Shown here piece after piece: positions 386 to 27,189 of a stretch of DNA of 28,944 nt. The translations under genes and the position numbers were made by a program. The notes beneath the pieces are model-generated. The model searched no databases. It was not told the origin of the DNA and was given only the letters and a program-made list of their open reading frames with translations. This stretch comes from a virus. Lineage: Duplodnaviria > Heunggongvirae > Uroviricota > Caudoviricetes. Each line of letters begins with the position of its first letter. Within the stretch, counting starts at the first letter, position 1. The stretch is taken from positions 1 through 28,944 of the IMG/VR virus record IMGVR_UViG_3300045988_129873; one strand, 5' to 3'.

Positions 386-1399
386 TTACTCTACTGTGGA
401 CACTGTGTGGACACTCTCGGCTTCAGTACCACCTCTTAGCGGATTAAGAGAAATGGCGTCCTGAAGGTACTCTGGCGCAAAATGAGCGTAAACCATAGTT
501 TGCTCAATCCGCGTGTGACCTAGTATCCGTTGTAGCGTGATAATACTTCCTCCATTAATCATGAAATGAGTGGCAAAGCTGTGCCTTAGTGCATGTGTGG
601 CTTGCCCCGTTGGCAAATCCGGTTTTATTGCTTTCATTGTTCGTCTGAAGCGAGGGTAATCAGCATCAGGGAATAAAAAACCTCGTTTGTTATCCGCGAT
701 CATTTTGGCAACAGCCTCTGAGATCGGGACGGTGCGTGGTTTGTTTGTTTTCGTTTTAACAAACGTGACGCGGTTATGGATGATATTTTCTGCTTTCAAA
801 CGAGCTGCTTCTCCCCAACGTGCTCCTGTACTCAGGCAAAGAATCGCAATCTTTTTGTTGTCGCCGTCAAGTGCTGCAAGCAGTAAGGCAATTTCTTCCT
901 GTGTGAGATAGCCTGTTTCTGGTTTTTCCTCCTTAAGCCTCTTTGTCCCTCTGATAGGGTGCTCACCAAAGAATAACTCCGCTTCAATCAGGGCTGTAAA
1001 CATGCCGCTAATACATGTTAAATCACGATTGATACTCGAAGGTTTAATACCCTGACTTCTTCGGGTGGCGCAGTACTGGCTGATAAGGGATTTCGTGATT
1101 TGAAATGCGCATGGGTCATTCGTTATTTTTGTGAAGATTTCAATTTTTCCAAGATTAGATTTCCCATGCTCTTCGTGTTTACCCTTTAAATCCCACCAGA
1201 TCTGTGTCAGTTCCGACAGACGTCGTTTGTCTGTTGGTTTTGATAGCCATTCTTTATTGTGGTGGTTGTACAACGTGTATTTTTCGAAAGCGACAGCTTC
1301 GCTTTTCTTATCAAACTTCCTACGGATGCGTTTTCCGTTACGTCCAGTAGGGCGGATGTCCACTTCATATCGACCATCATCGAGTTTTTTGATTGCCAT
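386..1399 (-). CDS. int: Tyrosine recombinase / phage integrase (P2 Int-like, 337 aa)
   Basis: The ORF-track entry begins at a TTG. I trimmed it to the ATG at 1399, which is preceded by a GGAGGG SD. The C-terminal HxLRHxxA and catalytic-Tyr region (ATHALRHSFATHF...TMVYAHF) is typical of tyrosine integrases. Position next to att and the C repressor. Confidence 0.93.
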   Translation of the reverse strand: MAIKKLDDGRYEVDIRPTGRNGKRIRRKFDKKSEAVAFEKYTLYNHHNKEWLSKPTDKRRLSELTQIWWDLKGKHEEHGKSNLGKIEIFTKITNDPCAFQITKSLISQYCATRRSQGIKPSSINRDLTCISGMFTALIEAELFFGEHPIRGTKRLKEEKPETGYLTQEEIALLLAALDGDNKKIAILCLSTGARWGEAARLKAENIIHNRVTFVKTKTNKPRTVPISEAVAKMIADNKRGFLFPDADYPRFRRTMKAIKPDLPTGQATHALRHSFATHFMINGGSIITLQRILGHTRIEQTMVYAHFAPEYLQDAISLNPLRGGTEAESVHTVSTVE

Positions 1400-6240: not shown

Positions 6241-6500
6241 GTAAAAACACAACGTGATTTGATATGGCATTGAATGGCTTATGCGGAGCAGTTATGGGGC
6301 AGCAGAAGGTCAATAGCATGCTGAATTAGAAGGCTAAATGCTATTGAGTGACTAGCATGTCGGTAAGGACGGCCGTTTGATCCGGGTCATAAAAGGCCAT
6401 CCATTTAGTCTAATAAAATCATTGCGGGTAACCTTATGTCGACGCATAATTCATCTTGAGCGAAGTCTTGTCAGTCTTTCATCGTATTGATGATGGGCGC

Positions 6501-6531
6501 AAAAAAACCACCCTGGCAGGTGGTTTTTTTG
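6501..6531. terminator. Bidirectional rho-independent terminator (A-tract, 7-bp stem aaccacc/ggtggtt, 6-nt loop, T-tract)
   Basis: aaaaaaaccaccctggcaggtggttttttt read directly. Lies immediately 3' of the minus-strand small ORF and about 260 bp 3' of gene A. Confidence 0.7.
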
Positions 6532-6542
6532 TTTGAAGCATA

Positions 6543-6656
6543 TTAAAGCATAATGCTGACATTGATATTACTGACGTTTACTGACAAACCACTCGGACTA
6601 CCGTTTGGATAGCCAAAGAGGGCCAGAACGAGCATGCAGTAATAGCATTTCTTCAT
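6543..6656 (-). CDS. Candidate small hydrophobic peptide, 37 aa (MKKCYYCMLVLALFGYPNGSPSGLSVNVSNINVSIML)
   Basis: ATG at 6656 is preceded by a perfect AGGAGG SD at 4-nt spacing. The terminator at 6501..6531 follows directly after the stop. The longer 88-aa track ORF has no SD at its upstream starts. Confidence 0.4.
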   Translation of the reverse strand: MKKCYYCMLVLALFGYPNGSPSGLSVNVSNINVSIML

Positions 6657-6801
6657 ATTGCCTCCTGTAAGTAGAGGGCAACTTCCACCGGTATATGCGC
6701 TTCTTAGGTGGAATGACTTTTGAGCGAAGTCTTGCCCTGAAATAATGCTCTGTTTAAACGCAAAGTGATTTGGCATATCACCGAACAGAGAGCCGGAAAA
6801 A

Positions 6802-6849
6802 CACAACATATAGTATGTCGTTGTTTCTAGACATACATTCTATGTTGTG
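6802..6849. promoter_or_regulatory. Imperfect palindrome / hairpin (cacaacatatagtatgtc ... gacatacattctatgttgtg)
   Basis: 9-bp perfect outer arms plus inner 6-7 bp pairing around a 10-nt loop, upstream (minus-strand sense) of the small ORF. Confidence 0.4.
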
Positions 6850-7134
6850 TAACAAGGGCTTTGCATTAAACATGTTTGAGATTTTATTGATGTAGCTCAA
6901 AGTAAAAAACAGAGACTACGGTTGATAAGGTCTTGAAAGCAATGTAAATTTTTTAAAGTTGCCAATTGCTTAAAAATGTACAGTTGCGGTATGGCGTACT
7001 TAAAAAGCTATGCATGCAACAAGTGAATGTTTTTGCATGCGTTGGGGATGTCCGTTCAGGCTGCGTGCGGTCAGGACTGGTGCGGATCCATAGTATCTAT
7101 GCAACTGCATTAAAACCGCCCCGTGAAGCGGGCG

Positions 7135-7153
7135 GGCGAGGCGGGGAAAGCAC
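7135..7153. other. cos: cos site (19-nt cohesive end sequence ggcgaggcggggaaagcac)
   Basis: Matches the P2 cohesive-end sequence as I recall it. It is a GC-rich island in an otherwise AT-rich intergenic region, located between A and Q as expected for a prophage. Confidence 0.7.
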
Positions 7154-7297
7154 TGCGCGCAGCCCGTCAAGAATAAAAAACTCTCTTGCAGGTAGAAAAC
7201 ATTCTGTTAACATTTGTCTGGATGAAGTTTAAGTTAGAAATTTATGTTAATGAACTGATTGATACTTATGTTTTGTCAATAATTTAGGAATGTTAAG

Positions 7298-8434
7298 ATG
7301 ACAAGCTATGTTACATGGGCAAATAAAGGTGGAATAGGTAAATCAACATTATCTTTCCAATTGGCGTTAAAATACGCGAGATTAAACACGAATAAAAAAG
7401 TAATCATAATAGATATGAGCCCTCAGTGTGATGTCTCTAGAATGTTATTGGGGGGAGGGCATTTTAACGGTGAGCAAAAGATCTTGGATAGAATGACCTC
7501 TAATCCAAGGTTGACAATTTACCGGTATCTTGAGGCCTGTGTTAATGATGTTCCTTCTGGGAGGGGATGGCCTGATTCATTATCATACTTAATTGAACCT
7601 AATTCTTTTCGAGACGAAAACGCAGAAAAATTGCCTGATAATATTAGTATGGTCTGTGGAGATTTCGACTTAGAGAGGGTTACTCATAGTTTAGATAATT
7701 TGCCACAACCTCAACCAAGAGGCGGGCGTGTTCCGTCGGGTGCTCATTACTCAGCATATTTATTGCCACGCACTTTTCTACGGAAAATGGTGGAGGACTT
7801 TGAGCGCGAATACAGGGATGTGACAATTTTTATTGATACAGATCCATATTATTCGGTAGTAACAACACATCTGGGGCTTCTGGCTGCAGACAGGTTGATT
7901 TCGGCATACTCTCCTTCATCTCAAGCAAGCCAGTATGCAGTATATCGTAGCTTAGAGTTTCTATACGATCCTAATTATGGACTGGTGCAAGAGGTTAATA
8001 CACAGAGAGCAATATATGGTACCCCTTGGTTTGATAGTTTAAATAATATAATTACAACACCGAATATATCTGTTGCAAATCTTTATATGGTAGTAAGTAA
8101 CATGAATACGCCTCAGGCTGGAAGAGGACAACCTCCATACAGCCAACCCCAAAAACTACATAGACAATCGCAACAAGAAGTTATATCTAGAATTAATGAC
8201 ACATTAAGTAGTTTGGGGATCGCGCATGATTATGTTCATGACTATTTATGGGATCTCAAGAGATTAGGTTTGATTTGTGATTATAATGGTTTTGATTTAG
8301 CAACAATTCAATTAGGGGAAAATTATGCGGAACCAAGTGATGATGGTAATTATTATGTAAATACTACAGGTGGAACACCGATCCAATTATCATCCTATAA
8401 TGCTAGGATCGAAACTGTTACATCAAAACTATAA
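7298..8434 (+). CDS. AT-rich cargo gene: ParA/MinD-like P-loop ATPase (deviant Walker A) with uncharacterised C-terminal half, 378 aa
   Basis: Deviant Walker A KGGIGKST at residues 10-17 (7325..7348), an IIIDMSPQ motif like ParA DxDPQ, and a Walker-B-like TIFIDTDP near residue 175. AGGAA SD 7 nt upstream. Much lower GC than the backbone. Hairpin terminator directly after the stop. No ParB or parS partner seen. Confidence 0.8.
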   Translation: MTSYVTWANKGGIGKSTLSFQLALKYARLNTNKKVIIIDMSPQCDVSRMLLGGGHFNGEQKILDRMTSNPRLTIYRYLEACVNDVPSGRGWPDSLSYLIEPNSFRDENAEKLPDNISMVCGDFDLERVTHSLDNLPQPQPRGGRVPSGAHYSAYLLPRTFLRKMVEDFEREYRDVTIFIDTDPYYSVVTTHLGLLAADRLISAYSPSSQASQYAVYRSLEFLYDPNYGLVQEVNTQRAIYGTPWFDSLNNIITTPNISVANLYMVVSNMNTPQAGRGQPPYSQPQKLHRQSQQEVISRINDTLSSLGIAHDYVHDYLWDLKRLGLICDYNGFDLATIQLGENYAEPSDDGNYYVNTTGGTPIQLSSYNARIETVTSKL

Positions 8435-8440
8435 GAACTA

Positions 8441-8460
8441 GGGGAGCAAATGCTCCCTTT
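8441..8460. terminator. Hairpin gggagc-aaat-gctccc followed by a T-rich run; convergent terminator between the cargo ATPase and Q
   Basis: Read directly from the sequence; 6-bp GC-rich stem, 4-nt loop, TTT after. Confidence 0.55.
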
Positions 8461-8506
8461 CTATATATGGGTTATTAATTACCCGCTTATATAAATATTG
8501 AAGAAA

Positions 8507-20164: not shown

Positions 20165-22414
20165 ATGAGCACAAAATTCAGAACCGTTATCACCACTGCC
20201 GGTGCAGCAAAGCTGGCAGCGGCAACCGCGCCGGGAGGGCGGAAGGTCAACATTACCACGATGGCCGTCGGGGATGGCGGTGGTAAATTGCCTGTCCCGG
20301 ATGCCGGACAGACCGGGCTTATCCACGAAGTCTGGCGACATGCGCTGAACAAAATCAGCCAGGACAAACGAAACAGTAATTATATTATCGCAGAGCTGGT
20401 TATTCCGCCGGAGGTGGGCGGTTTCTGGATGCGTGAGCTTGGCCTGTACGATGATGCGGGAACGTTAATTGCCGTGGCGAACATGGCCGAAAGTTATAAG
20501 CCTGCCCTTGCCGAAGGCTCAGGGCGTTCGCAGACCTGCCGCATGGTCATCATCGTCAGCAGTGTGGCCTCAGTGGCGCTGACCATTGACACCACAACGG
20601 TGATGGCAACGCAGGATTACGTTGATGACAAAATTGCAGAGCACGAACAGTCACGACGTCACCCGGACGCCTCGCTGACCGCAAAAGGTTTTACTCAGCT
20701 AAGCAGCGCGACCAACAGCACGTCTGAAACACTGGCCGCAACGCCGAAAGCAGTAAAGACCGCCTATGACCTTGCTAACGGGAAATATACTGCGCAGGAT
20801 GCCACCACAGCGCGAAAAGGTCTTGTCCAGCTCAGTAGTGCCACCAACAGCACGTCTGAAACGCTCGCCGCAACACCAAAAGCGGTTAAGGCAGCGTATG
20901 ACCTTGCTAACGGGAAATACACTGCACAGGACGCCACCACAGCGCGAAAAGGTCTTGTCCAGCTCAGTAGCGTCACCAACAGCGATTCTGAAACGCTTGC
21001 GGCAACGCCAAAGGCGGTAAAGGCCGCGTATGACCTTGCTAACGGGAAATACACTGCACAGGATGCCACTACAGCGCGAAAAGGTCTTGTCCAGCTCAGT
21101 AGCGCCACCAACAGTGATTCTGAAACGCTGGCCGCAACATCAAAAGCGGTGAAGTCTGCCTATGACAATGCTGAAAAACGTCTTCAGAAAGATCAGAACG
21201 GTGCGGATATTCCTGATAAAGGACGCTTCCTGAGTAACATTAATGTTTACAGCAAAGGTGAAGTGGATAAGAAAAAGGGAATGCGAAAGTATTCGTTTGC
21301 AGCCCCTGCAAATGTCGTTGCCGGGAAGTGGTATCCCGTTATCTTTCGCCGTGCTGCCAGCCTTTCAGGAGAAATGGCATCCCGCGTCGTTATTTCAACT
21401 GGTTGTTATAACGGCGATTATGTAATGAATAACTGCGAGTTTAATGGCATGGTTATGCCCGGAGGCTGGACCGATCGTGGTTCATATGCGGCAGGTTATT
21501 TCTGGACGTATCAGACTAATGAGCGTTCAATCCATTCCATTGTTACAAGCCTGAAAGATGATGATGTATGTAGTGTTTTTTATGTTGAAGCCAGAGCTTT
21601 CCCAGTACAAATTCTTGCAGAGGAAGGGCTAACGGTTATTGTTCCGACAGAGGATTATGTCGTCGGTCAGACGACATATAAGTGGGGGGCAACTAATCCC
21701 GCTACAGAAAGCACGAACGTACAGGCTATTCTGGATTTTAAAAATGGACGTGGTTATTACTGTTCACATCCATTTATTTCCAGCCTTTCAGGAAATGCTG
21801 CAACAGCAACGAAGTTAGCGAACGCAAGAAATATTAATGGTGTCAGATTTGATGGCTCTGCCGATATAAATATTAATACACTGGTATCCAGAAACCGTGT
21901 TACTGCATTAGGTGGGAGCGTAAAGGGGACACCAGGTATTCAGATGTATGAGGCATACAACAATGGCTACCCAACAGCCTATGGTAATGTGCTTCATCTC
22001 ACTGGCGTAACCGCTGTAGGAGAGGGTGAGTTACTTATTGGCTGGAGTGGAACCAGCGGTGCTCATGCTCCGGCATATATTCGCTCCCGACGAGATACCA
22101 CAGATGCTAACTGGTCTGGATGGGCGCAACTATATACAACTGCTCATAAACCCTCAGCGGGAGATGTTGGTGCATACACCAAAGCTGAGTCAGATTCACG
22201 TTATGTGAGAGACATGCGGTTGGGCGGTGCATCTACATATAAACCAGCAAATAATGGTACTACATGGACGCATCAGGCTCCGTCAGGTTGCGTATATACC
22301 GGCATTATTGTTCAGGATACCGGCTCAAACTCTGCCGATAACATTGGTGGCGTATATTACAGACCGGTGCAGAAATACATTAACGGGACATGGTATAACG
22401 TGGCGCAGGTATAA
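20165..22414 (+). CDS. H: Tail fibre protein H (749 aa) with internal tandem repeats and a lower-GC C-terminal receptor-binding part
   Basis: Conserved N-terminal baseplate-attachment region. Fibre repeat motifs (SSATNSTSETLAATPKAVK). Position before tail-fibre assembly gene G. Confidence 0.9.
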   Translation: MSTKFRTVITTAGAAKLAAATAPGGRKVNITTMAVGDGGGKLPVPDAGQTGLIHEVWRHALNKISQDKRNSNYIIAELVIPPEVGGFWMRELGLYDDAGTLIAVANMAESYKPALAEGSGRSQTCRMVIIVSSVASVALTIDTTTVMATQDYVDDKIAEHEQSRRHPDASLTAKGFTQLSSATNSTSETLAATPKAVKTAYDLANGKYTAQDATTARKGLVQLSSATNSTSETLAATPKAVKAAYDLANGKYTAQDATTARKGLVQLSSVTNSDSETLAATPKAVKAAYDLANGKYTAQDATTARKGLVQLSSATNSDSETLAATSKAVKSAYDNAEKRLQKDQNGADIPDKGRFLSNINVYSKGEVDKKKGMRKYSFAAPANVVAGKWYPVIFRRAASLSGEMASRVVISTGCYNGDYVMNNCEFNGMVMPGGWTDRGSYAAGYFWTYQTNERSIHSIVTSLKDDDVCSVFYVEARAFPVQILAEEGLTVIVPTEDYVVGQTTYKWGATNPATESTNVQAILDFKNGRGYYCSHPFISSLSGNAATATKLANARNINGVRFDGSADININTLVSRNRVTALGGSVKGTPGIQMYEAYNNGYPTAYGNVLHLTGVTAVGEGELLIGWSGTSGAHAPAYIRSRRDTTDANWSGWAQLYTTAHKPSAGDVGAYTKAESDSRYVRDMRLGGASTYKPANNGTTWTHQAPSGCVYTGIIVQDTGSNSADNIGGVYYRPVQKYINGTWYNVAQV
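20684..21181 (+). repeat. Tandem 132-bp (44-aa) in-frame repeat array, about 3.75 copies, inside gene H
   Basis: aaaggtcttgtccagctcagtag recurs at 20816, 20948 and 21080 (period 132). Protein units KG[FL][TV]QLSS[AV]TNS[TD]SETLAATPKAVK[TA]AYDLANGKYTAQDATTAR. Confidence 0.9.
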
Positions 22415-22417
22415 TTT

Positions 22418-22945
22418 ATGCAGCATTTAAAAAATATTACGGCGGGTAATCCAAAAACGGTTGAACAATATCAATTGACAAAGGACTTTGATGTTGTCTG
22501 GTTTTTTTCAGAAGATGGTAAGAACTGGTACGAAGAACAAAAGTATTTTGCTGATGACACGATAAAAATAGCGTACGACAAAGATAATATCATCCACTAT
22601 GTGGAAAAGGATGTGACAGCTATCAGACCGGATGGATTAAGTGTTGTTGAAGTGGCGGATATTACTGCTAACCGACGGGCGGACATTTCAGGGAACTGGA
22701 TGTTTAAGGACGGCAAAGTGATTAAACGCATTTATACGGCAGAGGAATTACAGCAGCAGGCAGAAATTCGGAAAGCCAGACTTCTTGCAGATGCTGAATC
22801 CGTGATTTTGCCGCTGGAGCGCGCGGTCAGACTGAACATGGCAACAGATGAGGAGCGCAGCCGACTGGAAGCATGGGAACGCTACAGCGTTCTGGTCAGT
22901 CGTGTGGATCCTGCAAATCCTGAATGGCCGGAAATGCCGCAATAA
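22418..22945 (+). CDS. G: Tail fibre assembly chaperone G (175 aa)
   Basis: 175 aa. Directly downstream of H. Confidence 0.88.
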
Positions 22946-23107
22946 GTTGTATGAGCTCTGGTGTGAGCTTACATATTTATGGCACAGAGTAAAGCCTAAT
23001 CTGACAGTCCGCTCTGTGCCACGAGCGGAAGCTGTCAAGATCATGCTAGATAGCGGGAGGGGCAAGCAATAGCAGATATGCGAACATGGTGATATATAAG
23101 ATAAATA

Positions 23108-23136
23108 GCCTATCAATAATAAAATCCCTGATAGGC
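23108..23136 (-). terminator. Candidate hairpin terminator downstream of the 720-aa cargo gene (stem gcctatca/tgataggc, 13-nt loop)
   Basis: Inverted repeat read from the sequence, about 50 bp 3' of the minus-strand stop. The loop is long and the T-tract weak. Confidence 0.3.
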
Positions 23137-23182
23137 TGTGATGAATAATTAATTCAGTCATTGAACCATATACTGCGGTTTT

Positions 23183-25345
23183 TTAGTTCTTTATTTTTGC
23201 CATTTTTTTATAATGTGCAGAATAACCTGTGTGCTCAAACACTAATCTAAGCCCCTCTTTGAAATCATTATAGTTAAATTCCTTGAAGTCAAAAATGTTC
23301 TGTCCTAATGAGTGTGACTCTCTGTTTATGTAACGAATAAAGGATTGAAATCGTGGTTTTTTTAACTCTGGTTTTTGAGTGACATTGCTTAAATCTGCTT
23401 TTTGTACAAAATTGAAAAAGTATTCAATTATATTTCTCATGCAGTTAGCAATTAAGGCAGGAGGCTGTTTGTCATCATTGATTACTGACCAATAAGACTG
23501 GTAGTCATTTTGTATTTCATCGTATTTCATTAAGATAATTGAACTGCCGTTGGAGTTTTTAGAAAGCCTAAATAAATTTTGATTTTCTTTTCTTCTTTCA
23601 TGGTTTGCATCAGCGAGTTCATAGAAAAAATATAAGCTGTGAGATAAAACAAATATCTGCTCTATTTCATTAGAGTTAAAGAAATCATTTTTTATTAGTT
23701 GGCCTATATTGTAGACAAAAATATGTGATAAGCTTGATACAGGATCATCGATTATAGCTATTTTTTTGGTTTTACCCTCGGTGGCGACTCTTTTACCTCT
23801 GAATAGTTCTCTAAAATACAAAAGGCTGATAATCATTTTTTCGCCTTCACTTAATGATGAGAATACTTTAGAATTAGAGTCATTACGTACTATGCGATAA
23901 AGAGTATCCTCATATTTTGCGATGTGAAAATCTGTGATTCCGATGTCATTTAAACCTTGGTTTATGTTGAATACGGCATCATCTATATTTACTGTTGATT
24001 TCTGATATTCAATCCGTTCTGCATCTTTAGTCTTTATTTTTGCTTCTTTTTCATCTTTGGCGGTGTTTTTTCTGATTATTATAATGTTTGCACTTTCTTT
24101 TATTTCGTTGAAATTTAAAATTGTTTGATCATACTCATACCTTAAGAACTGCCAGAAAGAAATTTTTATTTTTTCTAGCTCGTGTTTTGCATTGTCTATT
24201 TTTGAGTTATGTGTGGTTATTTCATTGTTCACTAATTTCACTAATGAATTGAAGTTATCAACAGAGTTGGATATATCATTCAGCGTTACTGGGGTACTGG
24301 GGTTTGTTACCTTCTGCTTTATTAGTTCCAAGTTGCTCTCTGTATCTTTTCTTAACAGGGCGTAACAGTCGCTTAATTGAACTATATAATTTGAAGATAG
24401 TTTGCATTCTTTATAAGTATCCAGTGAAGGAATACTGTCAATCAATGAGTTATATTTGGTCTGAATGGATTTTATTTTTTTTACACTATCTTGATACGTT
24501 TCATCGAAATAGTTGCGAATATGCTGAACCAAGTTTTCAGTTATAATTTGAGATTGACAAAATGGACACTGAGAATCTCCTGTTTGTTCTAAGTATTTTA
24601 GTCCTTCATTTACCCAATCAGAGTTCTGAAGCTTACTTATAAGATATGAAACGGGACTATCTGTACTTCCCACAATTATATTCTGAAGTAATTCCACTTC
24701 ATCGAGTGATAATACGATGGTGTGAATCTCCTCTAGCATGCTGTATTTTATTGCTGTTTCGCCATCAATCGCACTTGCTTCTTCTTTTAAGTCAGAGATG
24801 TTTTTTGATGGCTTAGAATTAGGTAAAGGAATGGAGCAAAGATGGTTGAATAATGATTCTTTACTTCCCATTTTTCCTAATAAACAAAATTCAAGGACCC
24901 TGTCACCACCTGAATAGTTGGTTTTTATTTCCCATGTTTTATTTTGAGCTTTGTTTTTTGCATCAGAAACAGAGGTGTTTTGTGCTGTTATTTCTTTTTC
25001 AATTTCACGTTTTTCATCAGATAGTTTTATTATTTCTAATGTGAGGCTCTCAACCTTTTCTTTTGCTTCTTTATTTTCCTTGGACAAGCTAAATATTCCA
25101 TTTAAAGAATCCTTTGCATAAAAGTTATCCTGAATGAATTTCTGATTGTAGACAAGGATTTCATCATACTCACCTGAGTGGGAACAATTCTCATATTTTT
25201 TATTATCTATGTCATAGAAATAATTGGAGAAGGTGCTTTTACCTGTTCCATTTAAACCATAAATAATATTTACTTTTTTATCAGTATTTAACTCTGATTT
25301 TGACTTATAACTTGCAACTTTATTTAGAACTATATTGTTTATCAT
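23183..25345 (-). CDS. AT-rich cargo gene at the Z/fun position: ABC/SMC-type ATPase with coiled-coil, CxxC hook-like motif and C-terminal HEPN-like R-x6-H; candidate RloC/PrrC-like defence nuclease, 720 aa
   Basis: Walker A GLNGTGKST at residues 30-38 (25232..25258). Charged coiled-coil stretches around residues 85-135 and 370-450. SQCPFCQ at residues 257-263 (about 24557..24577). ABC-signature-like SLSEGEK at 497-503. Walker B KKIAIIDDP at 527-535 (23741..23767). H-loop-like VLSHS at about 566-570. RYINRESH at 671-678 (23312..23335). About 25-30% GC in sampled stretches. Confidence 0.8.
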   Translation of the reverse strand: MINNIVLNKVASYKSKSELNTDKKVNIIYGLNGTGKSTFSNYFYDIDNKKYENCSHSGEYDEILVYNQKFIQDNFYAKDSLNGIFSLSKENKEAKEKVESLTLEIIKLSDEKREIEKEITAQNTSVSDAKNKAQNKTWEIKTNYSGGDRVLEFCLLGKMGSKESLFNHLCSIPLPNSKPSKNISDLKEEASAIDGETAIKYSMLEEIHTIVLSLDEVELLQNIIVGSTDSPVSYLISKLQNSDWVNEGLKYLEQTGDSQCPFCQSQIITENLVQHIRNYFDETYQDSVKKIKSIQTKYNSLIDSIPSLDTYKECKLSSNYIVQLSDCYALLRKDTESNLELIKQKVTNPSTPVTLNDISNSVDNFNSLVKLVNNEITTHNSKIDNAKHELEKIKISFWQFLRYEYDQTILNFNEIKESANIIIIRKNTAKDEKEAKIKTKDAERIEYQKSTVNIDDAVFNINQGLNDIGITDFHIAKYEDTLYRIVRNDSNSKVFSSLSEGEKMIISLLYFRELFRGKRVATEGKTKKIAIIDDPVSSLSHIFVYNIGQLIKNDFFNSNEIEQIFVLSHSLYFFYELADANHERRKENQNLFRLSKNSNGSSIILMKYDEIQNDYQSYWSVINDDKQPPALIANCMRNIIEYFFNFVQKADLSNVTQKPELKKPRFQSFIRYINRESHSLGQNIFDFKEFNYNDFKEGLRLVFEHTGYSAHYKKMAKIKN

Positions 25346-25871
25346 GATTTGCCATTTAGATGTTCGTGAATAAAGATTGATAAAGTATCTCTTATGAGGG
25401 CTCTAAGCAAGTAAAAGAGTGATATTTTGCGACATAGATACAAAAGATATTACCTCGCTGCTGCGGGGGGGTATCTTCATTGCAAGGCTTGGGTGTCAGT
25501 TAATTTAAGTGGTGGTTTTGATTATCTTTATATTTTCATGATTAACTAATCACTGTAAAAATTATTTTGTATTTTAGTTGGTCTTTTTTGATTCTAAAAT
25601 TAATAGTGTGCAGGATAAGCGTAAACTAATTTATTCACCGAAACGGTTGGCGGTTCTGTTCGTATTTTTTTCATTCTTGTAGACCCCGCTTCATTCAACA
25701 GTACGTTCAGTAGGTGAGCCTTTATACCACAAGTTTTTTAACTGCCCATAAAAATATTAAAAGTGCGCCTACGAAGTTGCAAGGCCTGCTCCTCGCTCAA
25801 GCAGGCTGTCAGATTTGATAGCGTTTTGGCTATGTAAACTGTCAGTCGGAAAATGAGTGAGTACAAATCAA

Positions 25872-25902
25872 GGCAGGCAATCTGATTGCCCGCCTTTTCT
25901 TT
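25872..25902 (+). terminator. Rho-independent terminator (stem ggcaggcaa/ttgcccgcc with one mismatch, loop tctga, T-tract ttttctttatc), probably ending the H-G late transcript beyond the cargo island
   Basis: Read directly from the sequence. Sits between the cargo island and the FI start. Confidence 0.55.
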
Positions 25903-25998
25903 ATCTGTTGTTTCATCCACTGACCAGTCAGGTCAAATAGCGTCTCATGCACTGCCCAACAGAAAATAGTTGCACCCATTAACCACGGAGTTAAACGG

Positions 25999-27189
25999 AT
26001 GAGTGACTATCATCATGGCGTGCAGGTGCTGGAGATTAACGACGGCACCCGCGTCATTTCCACCGTATCCACTGCCATTGTCGGCATGGTCTGCACGGCC
26101 AGCGATGCGGATGCGGAAACCTTCCCCCTCAATAAACCTGTGCTGATTACCAATGCCCAGAGCGCAATTGCAAAGGCCGGTAAAAAAGGCACGCTGGCGG
26201 CATCGTTGCAGGCCATCGCTGACCAGTCAAAACCGGTCACCGTTGTCGTGCGCGTGGAAGACGGCACCGGTGATGACGAGGAAACGAAACTCGCGCAGAC
26301 CGTTTCCAATATCATCGGCACCACCGACGAAAACGGTCAGTACACCGGACTAAAAGCCCTGCTGGCGGCGGAGTCGGTAACCGGTGTTAAACCGCGTATT
26401 CTCGGTGTGCCGGGACTGGATACCAAAGAGGTGGCTGTTGCACTGGCATCCGTCTGTCAGAAGCTGCGCGCTTTCGGATATATCAGCGCATGGGGCTGTA
26501 AGACCATTTCCGAGGTGAAAGCCTACCGCCAGAATTTCAGCCAGCGTGAGCTGATGGTCATCTGGCCGGATTTCCTCGCATGGGATACGGTCACCAGTAC
26601 CACCGCCACCGCGTATGTCACCGCCCGTGCGCTGGGTCTGCGCGCTAAAATCGACCAGGAGCAGGGCTGGCATAAAACGCTGTCCAACGTCGGGGTAAAC
26701 GGTGTTACCGGCATCAGCGCGTCCGTATTCTGGGATTTGCAGGAGTCCGGCACCGATGCTGACCTGCTTAACGAGTCAGGCGTCACAACGCTGATTCGCC
26801 GTGACGGTTTCCGCTTCTGGGGTAACCGTACCTGCTCTGATGACCCGCTGTTCCTCTTTGAAAACTACACCCGCACCGCGCAGGTGCTGGCCGACACGAT
26901 GGCTGAGGCGCACATGTGGGCGGTGGACAAGCCCATCACCGCAACGCTGATTCGCGACATCGTTGACGGCATCAATGCCAAATTCCGAGAGCTGAAAACA
27001 AACGGCTATATCGTGGATGCGACCTGCTGGTTCAGCGAAGAATCCAACGATGCGGAAACCCTCAAGGCCGGAAAACTGTATATCGACTACGACTATACCC
27101 CGGTGCCTCCTCTCGAAAACCTGACCCTGCGCCAGCGTATTACCGATAAATACCTGGCAAATCTGGTCACCTCGGTTAACAGCAATTAA
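25999..27189 (+). CDS. FI: Tail sheath protein FI (396 aa)
   Basis: 396 aa, same as P2 FI. Followed by FII-E-T. Confidence 0.92.
   Translation: MSDYHHGVQVLEINDGTRVISTVSTAIVGMVCTASDADAETFPLNKPVLITNAQSAIAKAGKKGTLAASLQAIADQSKPVTVVVRVEDGTGDDEETKLAQTVSNIIGTTDENGQYTGLKALLAAESVTGVKPRILGVPGLDTKEVAVALASVCQKLRAFGYISAWGCKTISEVKAYRQNFSQRELMVIWPDFLAWDTVTSTTATAYVTARALGLRAKIDQEQGWHKTLSNVGVNGVTGISASVFWDLQESGTDADLLNESGVTTLIRRDGFRFWGNRTCSDDPLFLFENYTRTAQVLADTMAEAHMWAVDKPITATLIRDIVDGINAKFRELKTNGYIVDATCWFSEESNDAETLKAGKLYIDYDYTPVPPLENLTLRQRITDKYLANLVTSVNSN

Follow-up and report, generated by a model that had tools for sequence, protein, structure and literature searches.

We identified, in a window of 28,944 nucleotides (the whole stretch of viral DNA that was analysed, IMG/VR record IMGVR_UViG_3300045988_129873), a 720-aa gene whose product is supported by its sequence as a further member of the known RloC family, and which is probably stand-alone defence cargo of a P2-like prophage of E. 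coli. Its sequence and an AlphaFold (AF2) model predict an ABC ATPase of the RloC family that carries a coiled-coil/zinc-hook insert and ends in an RNase domain of the PrrC/RloC type. The family was described by Davidov and Kaufmann (2008) as joining a Rad50-like ATPase to an RNase of the PrrC type, its orthologues (658-897 aa) being recognised by ABC motifs, a CXXC within a helical insert and an ACNase triad. The 720-aa protein has all three, i.e. the ABC motifs, the hook insert and an Arg-Glu-His triad. The homology is far beyond chance, since the protein matches Pfam AAA_13 over residues 10-699 (E=3e-108) and the PADLOC model PDLC04886 of PDC-S06 over residues 1-717 (positions 1-723 of the 727 of the profile, E=9.8e-255), and has relatives in 2881 clusters at 50% identity. 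A first-pass annotation had proposed the architecture of an RloC/PrrC-type nuclease, and this is now supported by the AAA_13 and PDC-S06 matches, the conserved motifs, the PrrC HMM, and the alignments to the APEC O1 and Ralstonia-type proteins. Its alternative of a new variant holds less well, since the prophage-associated clade of proteins of ~720-740 aa with a CPFCQ hook, to which this one belongs, is already noticed in the literature.

A cargo cassette between genes G and FI

The gene lies between the tail-fibre-assembly gene G (22418-22945) and the sheath gene FI (25999-27189), on the opposite strand, at a locus documented as the second defence hotspot of P2-like phages. The open reading frame, its length and its minus-strand orientation are as annotated from the letters alone, as is its position as a single opposite-strand gene at the Z/fun site, where the borders match the Z region of P2-EC58 (Table 1). 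The GC content of the gene is 31.3%, slightly above the 25-30% of the earlier estimate, versus ~55-58% in the flanking late genes, and rare codons account for 9.8% of the gene versus 2.0% of FI. No AGGAGG-like Shine-Dalgarno sequence was found upstream of the ATG, in line with the weak one claimed before.

Table 1. Features of the cassette, the gene and the encoded protein, with positions in the window
Feature	Position	Strand	Basis or equivalents
Variable cargo cassette of the P2 Z/fun (G-FI) hotspot	23039..25770		AJ512683 homology up to 23038 and again from 25771
Conserved left Z-region border, including the P2-EC58 'left inverted repeat'	22916..23038		95% identity to AJ512683 1-121
Conserved right Z-region border, including the 'right inverted repeat', upstream of FI	25771..25998		90% identity to AJ512683 1729-1959
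5' leader, presumed promoter and 5'UTR	25346..25799	minus	Co-conserved with the gene at the Raoultella locus
CDS, 720 aa, ATG start	23183..25345	minus	ORF, AAA_13, PDC-S06, AF2, dN/dS
Walker A / P-loop GLNGTGKST, residues 30-38	25232..25258	minus	Translation; G30 and K36 in 120/121 relatives
Helical insert, 364 aa, residues 89-452, splitting the ABC head in Rad50/SMC style	23990..25081	minus	AF2, Foldseek
CPFC zinc-hook motif (C260, P261, F262, C263)	24557..24568	minus	Conservation, AF2 loop, alignment to classical RloC
ABC signature LSEGEK, residues 498-503	23837..23854	minus	S499, E500, E502 invariant
Walker B / D-loop IAIIDDP(VSSLS), residues 529-535	23741..23761	minus	D533, D534, P535, S538, S540 invariant
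H-loop / switch histidine H569	23639..23641	minus	121/121 relatives
C-terminal all-helical domain, residues 608-720, 113 aa; predicted PrrC/RloC-type (HEPN-class) RNase	23186..23524	minus	
R637-N638-I-I-E641	23423..23437	minus	EcoPrrC R320-N321-x2-E324; GkaRloC R692-x3-E696
R671-Y-I-N674-R-E-S-H678	23312..23335	minus	EcoPrrC R349-x2-N352-x3-H356; GkaRloC H737

The intergenic region between the gene and FI spans 653 bp, of which ~425-454 bp belong to the cargo cassette, a figure that replaces the leader of about 350 bp given at first. This leader had been called free of ORFs, and we found no convincing small ORF in it. It also lacks a match to any Rfam family and an unusual RNA fold (z=0.09), and its number of promoter-like sites does not exceed that of shuffled sequences. 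A hairpin in the right border (25870-25896) is terminator-like on both strands, and there are no tRNA genes within the window.

Positions 23067-25799 align contiguously, at 88% identity, with a chromosomal locus of Raoultella. The leader is 79% identical in the two copies and best conserved in its last ~140 nt, and a 47-bp piece of the left border (23007-23053) also flanks the Raoultella copy. Leader and gene travel as one cassette. Relative to the Raoultella copy, the gene has a dN/dS of 0.13 and is under purifying selection. Of 5426 E. coli genomes, 1045 have the flanks of the cassette and 2 have the cargo.

Of 80 viral loci with relatives of the protein, 17 have them at the gpA-portal hotspot. 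Such relatives are recurrent cargo of this P2 hotspot, and the G-FI placement of the 720-aa gene is unusual. Relatives were also found on 220 plasmids, 161 of them conjugative; a homologue on a Shewanella plasmid is truncated by IS10 and was used for its C-terminal part only. The chromosomal copy of Raoultella adjoins a SymE toxin gene. A partner gene encoded elsewhere had been named beforehand as an observation that would count against the nuclease reading, and a comparison of the P2, Raoultella and Vibrio contexts gave no conserved partner or antitoxin next to the gene.

Conserved residues and predicted domains

All the motifs listed in the first-pass annotation were found in the translation, and their conservation was counted in 121 diverse relatives with 28-58% identity to the 720-aa protein. 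In the ATPase head, GLNGTGKST, LSEGEK, IAIIDDPVSSLS and H569 are invariant or at least 97% conserved. The equivalent of K36 in GkaRloC is K44, needed for ACNase activation, and D533/D534 are the equivalents of the literature residues D572 of GkaRloC and D215/D216 of EcoPrrC.

The AF2 model of the monomer has a mean pLDDT of 90.8 and a pTM of 0.60, and the full model matches, in Foldseek, the heads with coiled coils of Rad50, SMC, LmuB and PtuA. The insert is modelled with two long helices adjoining the head (residues 90-137 and 406-449), further helices at 282-404, and an ascending arm (~139-255) of short helices and loops. The CPFC motif follows a conserved W244-V-x2-G248, lies within the loop that separates helix 242-255 from helix 270-279, and aligns with the CxFC of classical and Ralstonia-type RloC. 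W244, C260, P261 and C263 occur in 121/121 relatives and F262 in 118/121. The CxxC hook motif claimed earlier is present in the middle of the insert, with its cysteines at 260 and 263 instead of 259 and 262. An AlphaFold model had been suggested as a check of the coiled-coil hook: it contains the helical insert and the CPFC loop but not a continuous ascending coiled coil over residues ~139-255, so that the Rad50-like hook geometry is only putative.

The evidence for a nuclease comes from the C-terminal domain. Six residues of EcoPrrC (R320, N321, E324, R349, N352 and H356) are essential by mutagenesis and reported as conserved in RloC, and the catalytic triad of GkaRloC (R692/E696/H737) is also reported as essential. 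Among the 121 relatives, the corresponding positions are R637 in all, N638 in 109, E641 as 113 E and 8 D, R671 in 116, N674 as 95 N and 16 D, and H678 in 119. Within R637-N-x2-E641 and within R671-x2-N674-x3-H678, the residues are spaced exactly as in EcoPrrC, and 41 residues separate R637 from H678. The former is aligned across clades, and the His motif of related clades is varied (W-x-N-D-G-S-H) or absent. The C-terminal 217 aa alone match the PADLOC HMM of PrrC over positions 170-348 of 372, the nuclease part of the profile (E=1.6e-6). Between the 720-aa protein and the Raoultella copy, the C-terminal domain has dN=0 and dS=0.41 and is the most constrained part of the protein. RYINRESH had been described as fitting the HEPN Rx4-6H motif at its upper bound, and R671-x6-H678 does so. 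This motif is the part of the proposed HEPN-like tail that stood; structure searches did not confirm a HEPN fold, or identify a nuclease fold, for the C-terminal domain. The first-pass annotation missed the R637-N638-I-I-E641 motif, which is more diagnostic of the nuclease than the other half of the signature. We identified no equivalent of PrrC His295 in the protein, and KYDEIQNDYQSY, considered as the PrrC LARP motif, was rejected because its columns are not conserved in the family.

Searches of other collections were less informative. NCBIfam returned no family and only weak matches to Rad50 P-loops, PHROGs returned families of 'unknown function' only, and the PDB sequences, searched with the single protein and then with a profile, gave P-loops of Rad50, SMC and AriA and no PrrC or RloC structure. 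Neither Pfam nor PADLOC revealed domains beyond AAA_13 and PDC-S06. Pfam had been expected to show AAA_13 together with a HEPN or Abi-type domain, and only AAA_13 was recovered.

Proposed function and alternative explanations

If the 720-aa protein works as a stand-alone RloC, then by analogy with GkaRloC and EcoPrrC it would be produced at a low level in the lysogen; the weak Shine-Dalgarno and the rare codons agree with the low expression described for genes of the rloC kind. It would dimerise through its ABC heads and through Zn2+ shared at the hooks, and remain latent. A superinfecting phage perturbing the DNA (breaks, free ends or foreign DNA) could then lead the DNA-dependent ATPase to activate the C-terminal RNase, which would cleave the anticodon loops of tRNAs. 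GkaRloC excises the wobble nucleotide and leaves 2',3'-cyclic-P and 5'-OH ends, which phage repair enzymes cannot simply re-ligate. The resulting halt in translation would abort the infection, protecting sibling lysogens and the prophage itself. Cleavage of the anticodon loop with wobble excision, activated by a DNA-dependent ATPase, is shown only for GkaRloC, and in the RloC literature that we found an antiviral role is put forward as a proposal, with no plaque assay to show it.

The same architecture could follow another logic, and we give a modest chance to an ABC-HEPN abortive-infection RNase whose trigger, substrate, or both differ from those of classical RloC. Its trigger might be, for instance, a phage protein or a replication intermediate recognised by the middle module that is not coiled, or its target might be another set of tRNAs, mRNA or rRNA. 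Substrate preference already differs between PrrC and RloC, and the protein is only ~25% identical to a Ralstonia-type RloC, is shorter (720 vs 767-897 aa), and has the stretch predicted as non-coiled at residues ~139-255. The variation or loss of the His motif in related clades points the same way, as does the HEPN survey of Anantharaman et al. (2013), where the APECO1_4465 prophage group is kept apart from 'RloC-like'. However, the protein keeps, at the same spacing, every catalytic or hook residue of known importance in PrrC and RloC, and no additional Pfam or PADLOC domain suggests another sensor. We are more doubtful about a stronger version, in which the prophage/plasmid clade with the CPFCQ hook would differ in function from a plain RloC orthologue and be an ABC-RNase sensor that acts on an RNA target of its own, with the interrupted arm dedicated to sensing a phage-specific cue. 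In this version the cassette of leader and gene may also be exchanged among P2 Z-regions and chromosomes when the inverted repeats of the Z region recombine. Such movement is suggested by the 47-bp repeat fragment that flanks the Raoultella copy.

The carriage of relatives by plasmids, most of them conjugative, and the SymE toxin gene beside the Raoultella cassette raise the question of whether the gene is primarily anti-phage at all. It could be an addiction or competition module that stabilises the prophage or plasmid, or opposes rival plasmids, its presence in a hotspot being incidental. Many members of AAA_13 are, according to Pfam, proteins of conjugative transfer, which counts in favour of such a module. 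Yet the cassette family is found in two hotspots of P2-like phages that yielded validated defence genes, PDC-S06 was recovered through members embedded in defence loci (see below), and there is no conserved antitoxin-like partner, which together make this explanation improbable. The least credible explanation is that of a nuclease-dead SMC/Rad50-like ATPase, whose C-terminal helices would be a lid or adaptor recruiting an effector encoded elsewhere. In its favour, ATPases of the LmuB, PtuA and AriA types do use separate effectors, and the structure searches did not recognise the C-terminal domain as a nuclease fold. Against it stand the invariance of R637 and the conservation of E641, R671 and H678 at 93-98%, the dN of zero across the C-terminal domain, the alignment of the PrrC HMM through the nuclease region, and the lack of a conserved partner gene in three unrelated contexts. 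A stand-alone RloC-family protein carried as prophage defence cargo is the explanation that we favour.

Research on abortive-infection systems that cleave tRNAs (PrrC, PARIS, retron-Septu, Old, HepS) is very active, and RloC is among the most often annotated of these systems and yet the least tested. The gene studied here is a compact, single-gene version native to E. coli and contained in a defined 2.7-kb cassette, and thus a convenient test case. It could be used to ask whether the RloC family protects from phages, which signal activates it, and which tRNAs are cut. The family serves as cargo in both P2 hotspots, and its correspondence with PDC-S06 helps to reconcile the outputs of annotation tools.

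Comparison with known systems

Classical RloC (G. kaustophilus, A. baylyi, Ralstonia/Burkholderia) shares with the 720-aa protein a single polypeptide with a split ABC head, a CxxC hook after WVxxG, the same LSEGEK, DDPxSS and TH motifs, and a C-terminal R-x3-E followed ~41-49 residues later by R-[YF]-I-N-[RK]-x-S-H. It also has no obligatory R-M linkage and has features of low expression. The classical proteins are longer, and have a hook of the form HK...C-x-F-C-G where this one has CPFCQ. The distance from R to H is 41 residues here, 45 in GkaRloC and 49 in L083, a protein taken as Ralstonia-type RloC by its agreement with the Ralstonia/Burkholderia rows of Fig. S1 of the founding paper. 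L083 is colinear with the 720-aa protein, nuclease motifs included, at ~25% identity (E=3e-30), and has RFINKYSH in the place of RYINRESH. Activity, substrate and trigger are, for the 720-aa protein, only predicted by analogy.

Another close relative in kind is a protein from a P2-like prophage of E. coli APEC O1 (YP_852004 / WP_000423308.1, 738 aa), which Davidov and Kaufmann (2008) listed as an RloC orthologue and which probably corresponds to the ABC-HEPN group of APECO1_4465 in Anantharaman et al. (2013). It is colinear with the 720-aa protein at 33% full-length identity (E=1e-92), has the same top PADLOC model PDLC04886 (~845 bits each), and shares the CPFCQ hook and the MRNILEY...RYINRxSHSD tail. 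Unlike the present gene, it lies in the gpA-portal (old/tin) hotspot, between replication and portal genes. The 720-aa protein is itself a full-length, top-scoring member of PDC-S06, a single-gene candidate found through its embedding in RM, BREX or DISARM loci; the PADLOC authors list PDC as untested candidates. PDC-S06 is also the best PADLOC match of L083, which aligns end-to-end with the model of the clade of the 720-aa protein. Since PDC-S06 captures this Ralstonia-type RloC too, it is in effect the RloC family with a different label.

PrrC, from the E. coli prr locus, has the same combination of an ABC N-domain and a C-terminal RNase, with essential residues that match in identity and spacing. 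However, it has ~396 aa and no coiled-coil or hook insert, as opposed to 720 aa and an insert of 364 aa, and it is encoded within, and kept silent by, a type Ic R-M (hsd/prrI) locus, whereas the 720-aa gene has no R-M neighbours and neither the window nor the related prophage has hsd genes. Rad50/SbcC, SMC, LmuB of Lamassu and PtuA of Septu and retrons resemble the protein in head fold, coiled-coil insert and CPxC-type hook. They differ from it in lacking a fused RNase and in working with separate nucleases (Mre11/SbcD, LmuA, PtuB), and the coiled coils of Rad50 and SMC are much longer than its insert. Finally, P2 Old is also a single-gene ABC-ATPase/nuclease cargo of a P2 hotspot, although its effector is a TOPRIM domain unrelated to the PrrC/RloC type, it has no hook, and it occupies the other hotspot. 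According to a 2026 preprint, Old is a DNA-activated abortive tRNase, which is the same logic as that proposed here for the 720-aa protein.

Gene, fold and nuclease signature

The ORF proved to be real: it starts with ATG and lies antisense between the tail-fibre assembly gene G and the sheath gene FI of a P2-like prophage, where the first-pass annotation had placed it. Its GC content is 31.3%, and not 25-30% as first estimated, against ~55-58% in the flanking late genes. Its GC3 is 0.29 and rare codons account for 9.8% of the gene versus 2.0% of FI. All motifs listed at first pass, from the Walker A to RYINRESH, were found in the protein, with the hook cysteines shifted by one position relative to the earlier numbering (259/262). 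No Shine-Dalgarno-like sequence was found upstream of the ATG, where a weak one had been described; the AT-rich leader is present, but spans ~450 bp and not ~350 bp. This leader matches no Rfam family, has no unusual RNA structure, and its promoter signal is not above chance.

Positions of features in the 720-aa protein (residues, aa) and in the window (nucleotides, nt)
Feature	Position	Strand	Remarks
ABC head	aa 1-88 + 453-607		AlphaFold2 model
Walker A	aa 30-38		GLNGTGKST
Helical insert	364 aa		AlphaFold2 model; long helices 90-137 and 406-449, further helices 282-404
Hook	aa 260-263		CPFC; loop between helices 242-255 and 270-279 in the AlphaFold2 model
Signature-like motif	aa 498-503		LSEGEK
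Walker B	aa 529-535		IAIIDDP
H-loop	aa 569		His
C-terminal domain	aa 608-720		AlphaFold2 model; all-helical
Second nuclease motif	aa 671-678		RYINRESH
gpA-portal hotspot	nt 6241-8506		low-GC cargo
ParA-like ORF	nt 7298-8434	+	378 aa
Tail fibre H	nt 20165-22414	+	
G	nt 22418-22945		tail-fibre assembly
Piece of left inverted repeat	nt 23007-23053		47 bp
Cargo	nt 23039-25770		
Cassette with leader	nt 23067-25799		
Gene under study	nt 23183-25345	-	720 aa
Hairpin	nt 25870-25896		12-bp stem
FI	nt 25999-27189		sheath

Pfam AAA_13, one of the families expected beforehand, spans residues 10-699 (E=3e-108), and the top PADLOC model is the phage defence candidate PDC-S06 (PDLC04886, residues 1-717, E=1e-254). 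NCBIfam lacks a model of this family, which PHROGs lists only under 'unknown function'. Clustered at 50% identity, the family forms 2881 groups with E<=1e-3 and 966 with E<=1e-30, and homologues 57-59% identical are already named 'wobble nucleotide-excising tRNase' or 'translation-disabling ACNase RloC' in some sources. We counted conservation per column in an alignment of 121 full-length relatives (28-58% identity). W244, C260, P261, C263, S499, E500, E502, D533, D534, P535, S538, S540, H569, Y615, W619, and R637 are invariant, while K36, E641 (113 E and 8 D), R671, H678, and H711 are kept in 113-120 of the relatives, N638 in 109, and N674 in 95 (with D in another 16).

With this alignment, AlphaFold2 produced a confident model of the monomer (mean pLDDT 90.8, pTM 0.60). 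In Foldseek the full model matched the heads of Rad50, SMC, Lamassu LmuB, and Septu/retron PtuA, and a profile search of PDB sequences matched Rad50, SMC, and AriA. Neither search returned a structure of PrrC or RloC, of which apparently none has been deposited. The C-terminal domain modelled alone (pLDDT 87, pTM 0.80) gave a best Foldseek E of 0.38, with cytochrome b562 bundles at the top. Hence, the basis of the HEPN label is the Rx6H motif together with the work of Anantharaman et al. 2013, whose profile analysis assigned the PrrC/RloC/APECO1_4465 domains to HEPN and termed them atypical.

Mutagenesis of E. coli PrrC revealed six essential residues (R320, N321, E324, R349, N352, H356), most of them reported as conserved in RloC (PMC3025547), and the triad of the Geobacillus kaustophilus protein (GkaRloC) is R692/E696/H737 (PMC2610378). 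Our protein carries R637-N638-x2-E641, missed at first pass, and R671-x2-N674-x3-H678, which had been spotted. Spacing within both motifs is the same as in PrrC, and the R-to-H distance is 41 residues (PrrC, 36; GkaRloC, 45). Taken by themselves, the last 217 residues match the PADLOC PrrC model (profile positions 170-348 of 372, E=1.6e-6). Relative to the 88%-identical Raoultella copy, dN/dS is 0.13 overall, and constraint is strongest in the C-terminal domain, which shows no amino-acid change despite a dS of 0.41. The match to PrrC and this pattern of selection support the assignment as a putative nuclease.

Cargo at the two P2 hotspots

The limits of the cargo were set by homology to the P2-EC58 Z-region record, which stops at 23038 and restarts at 25771. 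Of 5426 complete E. coli genomes, 1045 have the flanks and only two the cargo. G-FI (fun) has been documented as a second hotspot of P2-like phages that is enriched for defence genes (Vassallo et al. 2022). Among the best 80 viral loci, the relative is in the gpA-portal hotspot in 17 and in G-FI in none. RloC-type genes are thus recurrent P2 cargo, and only the G-FI position in the window is unusual. On viral contigs, a classical RloC with a C-x-F-C-G hook (L091) and more distant relatives (L056, L057) are also encoded between a gpA-like and a portal-like gene, in P2-like phages that are more divergent (protein identity 30-70%), indicating that the gpA-portal hotspot captured several RloC clades independently. 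A 33%-identical relative is also encoded by Enterobacter phage ENT4 (PV844615.1, 3413-5581), an unannotated record of P2-like size (31,342 bp).

The cassette and its leader share 88% identity with a chromosomal locus of Raoultella without phage genes (L002:5536-8279), where the copy (leader, gene, and 3' tail) adjoins genes for a SymE toxin and a DUF6602 protein. About 550 bp beyond it (L002:8830-8876) lies a 47-bp fragment of the left inverted repeat of the P2 Z region, which suggests that the cassette may have moved with or via Z-region repeats. The neighbours of a Vibrio vulnificus relative differ again. Between the cassette and FI, the conserved right border contains a GC-rich hairpin with a terminator-like score on both strands, which could shield the cargo from the late operon.

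The gpA-portal hotspot of the prophage encodes a ParA-like ATPase (Pfam AAA_31/CbiA) without a PADLOC match; this cargo corresponds to the 'putative partitioning system' found by Rousset et al. in ~1/4 of P2-like phages. In the two E. coli genomes whose Z cassette is 99.6% identical, the same hotspot holds a retron-Ec48-type RT, an effector, and a second RT, showing that the two hotspots assort independently. The tail fibre has four tandem copies of a ~46-aa repeat (…KGxxQLSSATNSxSETLAATPKAVKxAYDLANGKYTAQDATTAR…) and its GC falls in the C-terminal half, both typical of mosaic receptor-binding regions.

Proposed mechanism and alternatives

In GkaRloC a DNA-dependent ATPase activates the anticodon nuclease (ACNase), and the hook mutant C291G uncouples the two activities. 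By analogy with this protein and PrrC, the 720-aa protein would be expressed at low level in the lysogen and dimerise through its heads and a Zn-linked hook in a latent state. Activation via the ATPase would follow once an incoming phage perturbs DNA, and cleavage of tRNA anticodon loops would then abort the infection.

The same architecture might respond to another trigger or act on another target, which we regard as unlikely. Relatives occur on 220 plasmids, of which 161 are conjugative. A role in addiction or competition on mobile elements seems quite improbable. An ATPase with a dead nuclease and a partner encoded elsewhere is hardly credible: no partner gene is conserved across the P2, Raoultella, and V. 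vulnificus contexts. The RloC-family interpretation is the supported one, and this compact cassette from E. coli lends itself to asking if RloC-type proteins protect against phage, and by what means.

Comparison with known RloC proteins

A scan of viral contigs identified 103 relatives, which we sorted by hook and tail motifs. The clade of the 720-aa protein has a CPFCQ hook and an R-x2-N-x3-H tail; this tail accompanies a C-x-F-C-G hook in four loci (L083, L087, L090, L091). The Shewanella plasmid type combines CPFCQ with W-x-N-D-G-S-H. In S. decolorationis pNi1-3 (L011:3923-4936), IS10A truncated a PDC-S06/RloC-type gene, leaving 337 C-terminal aa whose tail (MRRIIENYF...WINDGSH...HY) has a variant His motif; the gene adjoins a TnpB gene, a context resembling the 2008 description of the RloC of the Shewanella sp. 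ANA-3 plasmid. A gut-phage clade with a CPYCQ hook (L043, L050, and ~25 other viral loci) retains the R-x3-E helix (RHILEYYF or RQILEYYF) and lacks a histidine at the position aligned with H678 (e.g. YMNDGPAV, YIGAENQ). Its members may be nuclease-inactive or have a differently arranged catalysis.

The L083 protein (768 aa) is a near residue-for-residue match to the Ralstonia/Burkholderia rows of Fig. S1 of the founding paper (Davidov & Kaufmann 2008). Its identity to ours is ~25% (E=3e-30), and the two proteins are colinear (Walker A, WVxxG, hook, LSEGEK, DDPVSS, TH, then ARKLMESFF...YRFINKYSHSD in L083). PDC-S06 also supplies its best model (PDLC04894, E=2e-169), and its alignment to the model of our protein's clade runs from end to end (E=1e-57), so PDC-S06 is effectively PADLOC's label for the RloC family. 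PDCs are candidate systems identified via their embedding in RM, BREX or DISARM loci. This fits the name rloC, which stands for restriction-linked ORF.

The founding paper took as RloC orthologues proteins of 658-897 aa in which the triad, CXXC, and ABC motifs occur together (Table S1). The same table includes a 738-aa protein from E. coli APEC O1 with the flanks 'phage replication initiation, capsid'. We located its gene in NC_008563.1 (WP_000423308.1, 925932-928148), within a P2-like prophage, with a replication endonuclease on one side and the portal gene on the other. This protein is 33% identical to ours over the full length (E=1e-92), matches the same PADLOC model with equal score, and its C-terminal part matches the PrrC model (E=1e-12). 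The 2008 definition, the homology to the APEC O1 and L083 proteins, and the PrrC-like spacing of the nuclease motifs all support the RloC/PrrC-type assignment proposed at first pass. The 720-aa protein falls within the CPFCQ clade, a prophage-associated group that had drawn notice in 2008 and again in 2013, and what differs in the window is the protein's seat in the second P2 hotspot.
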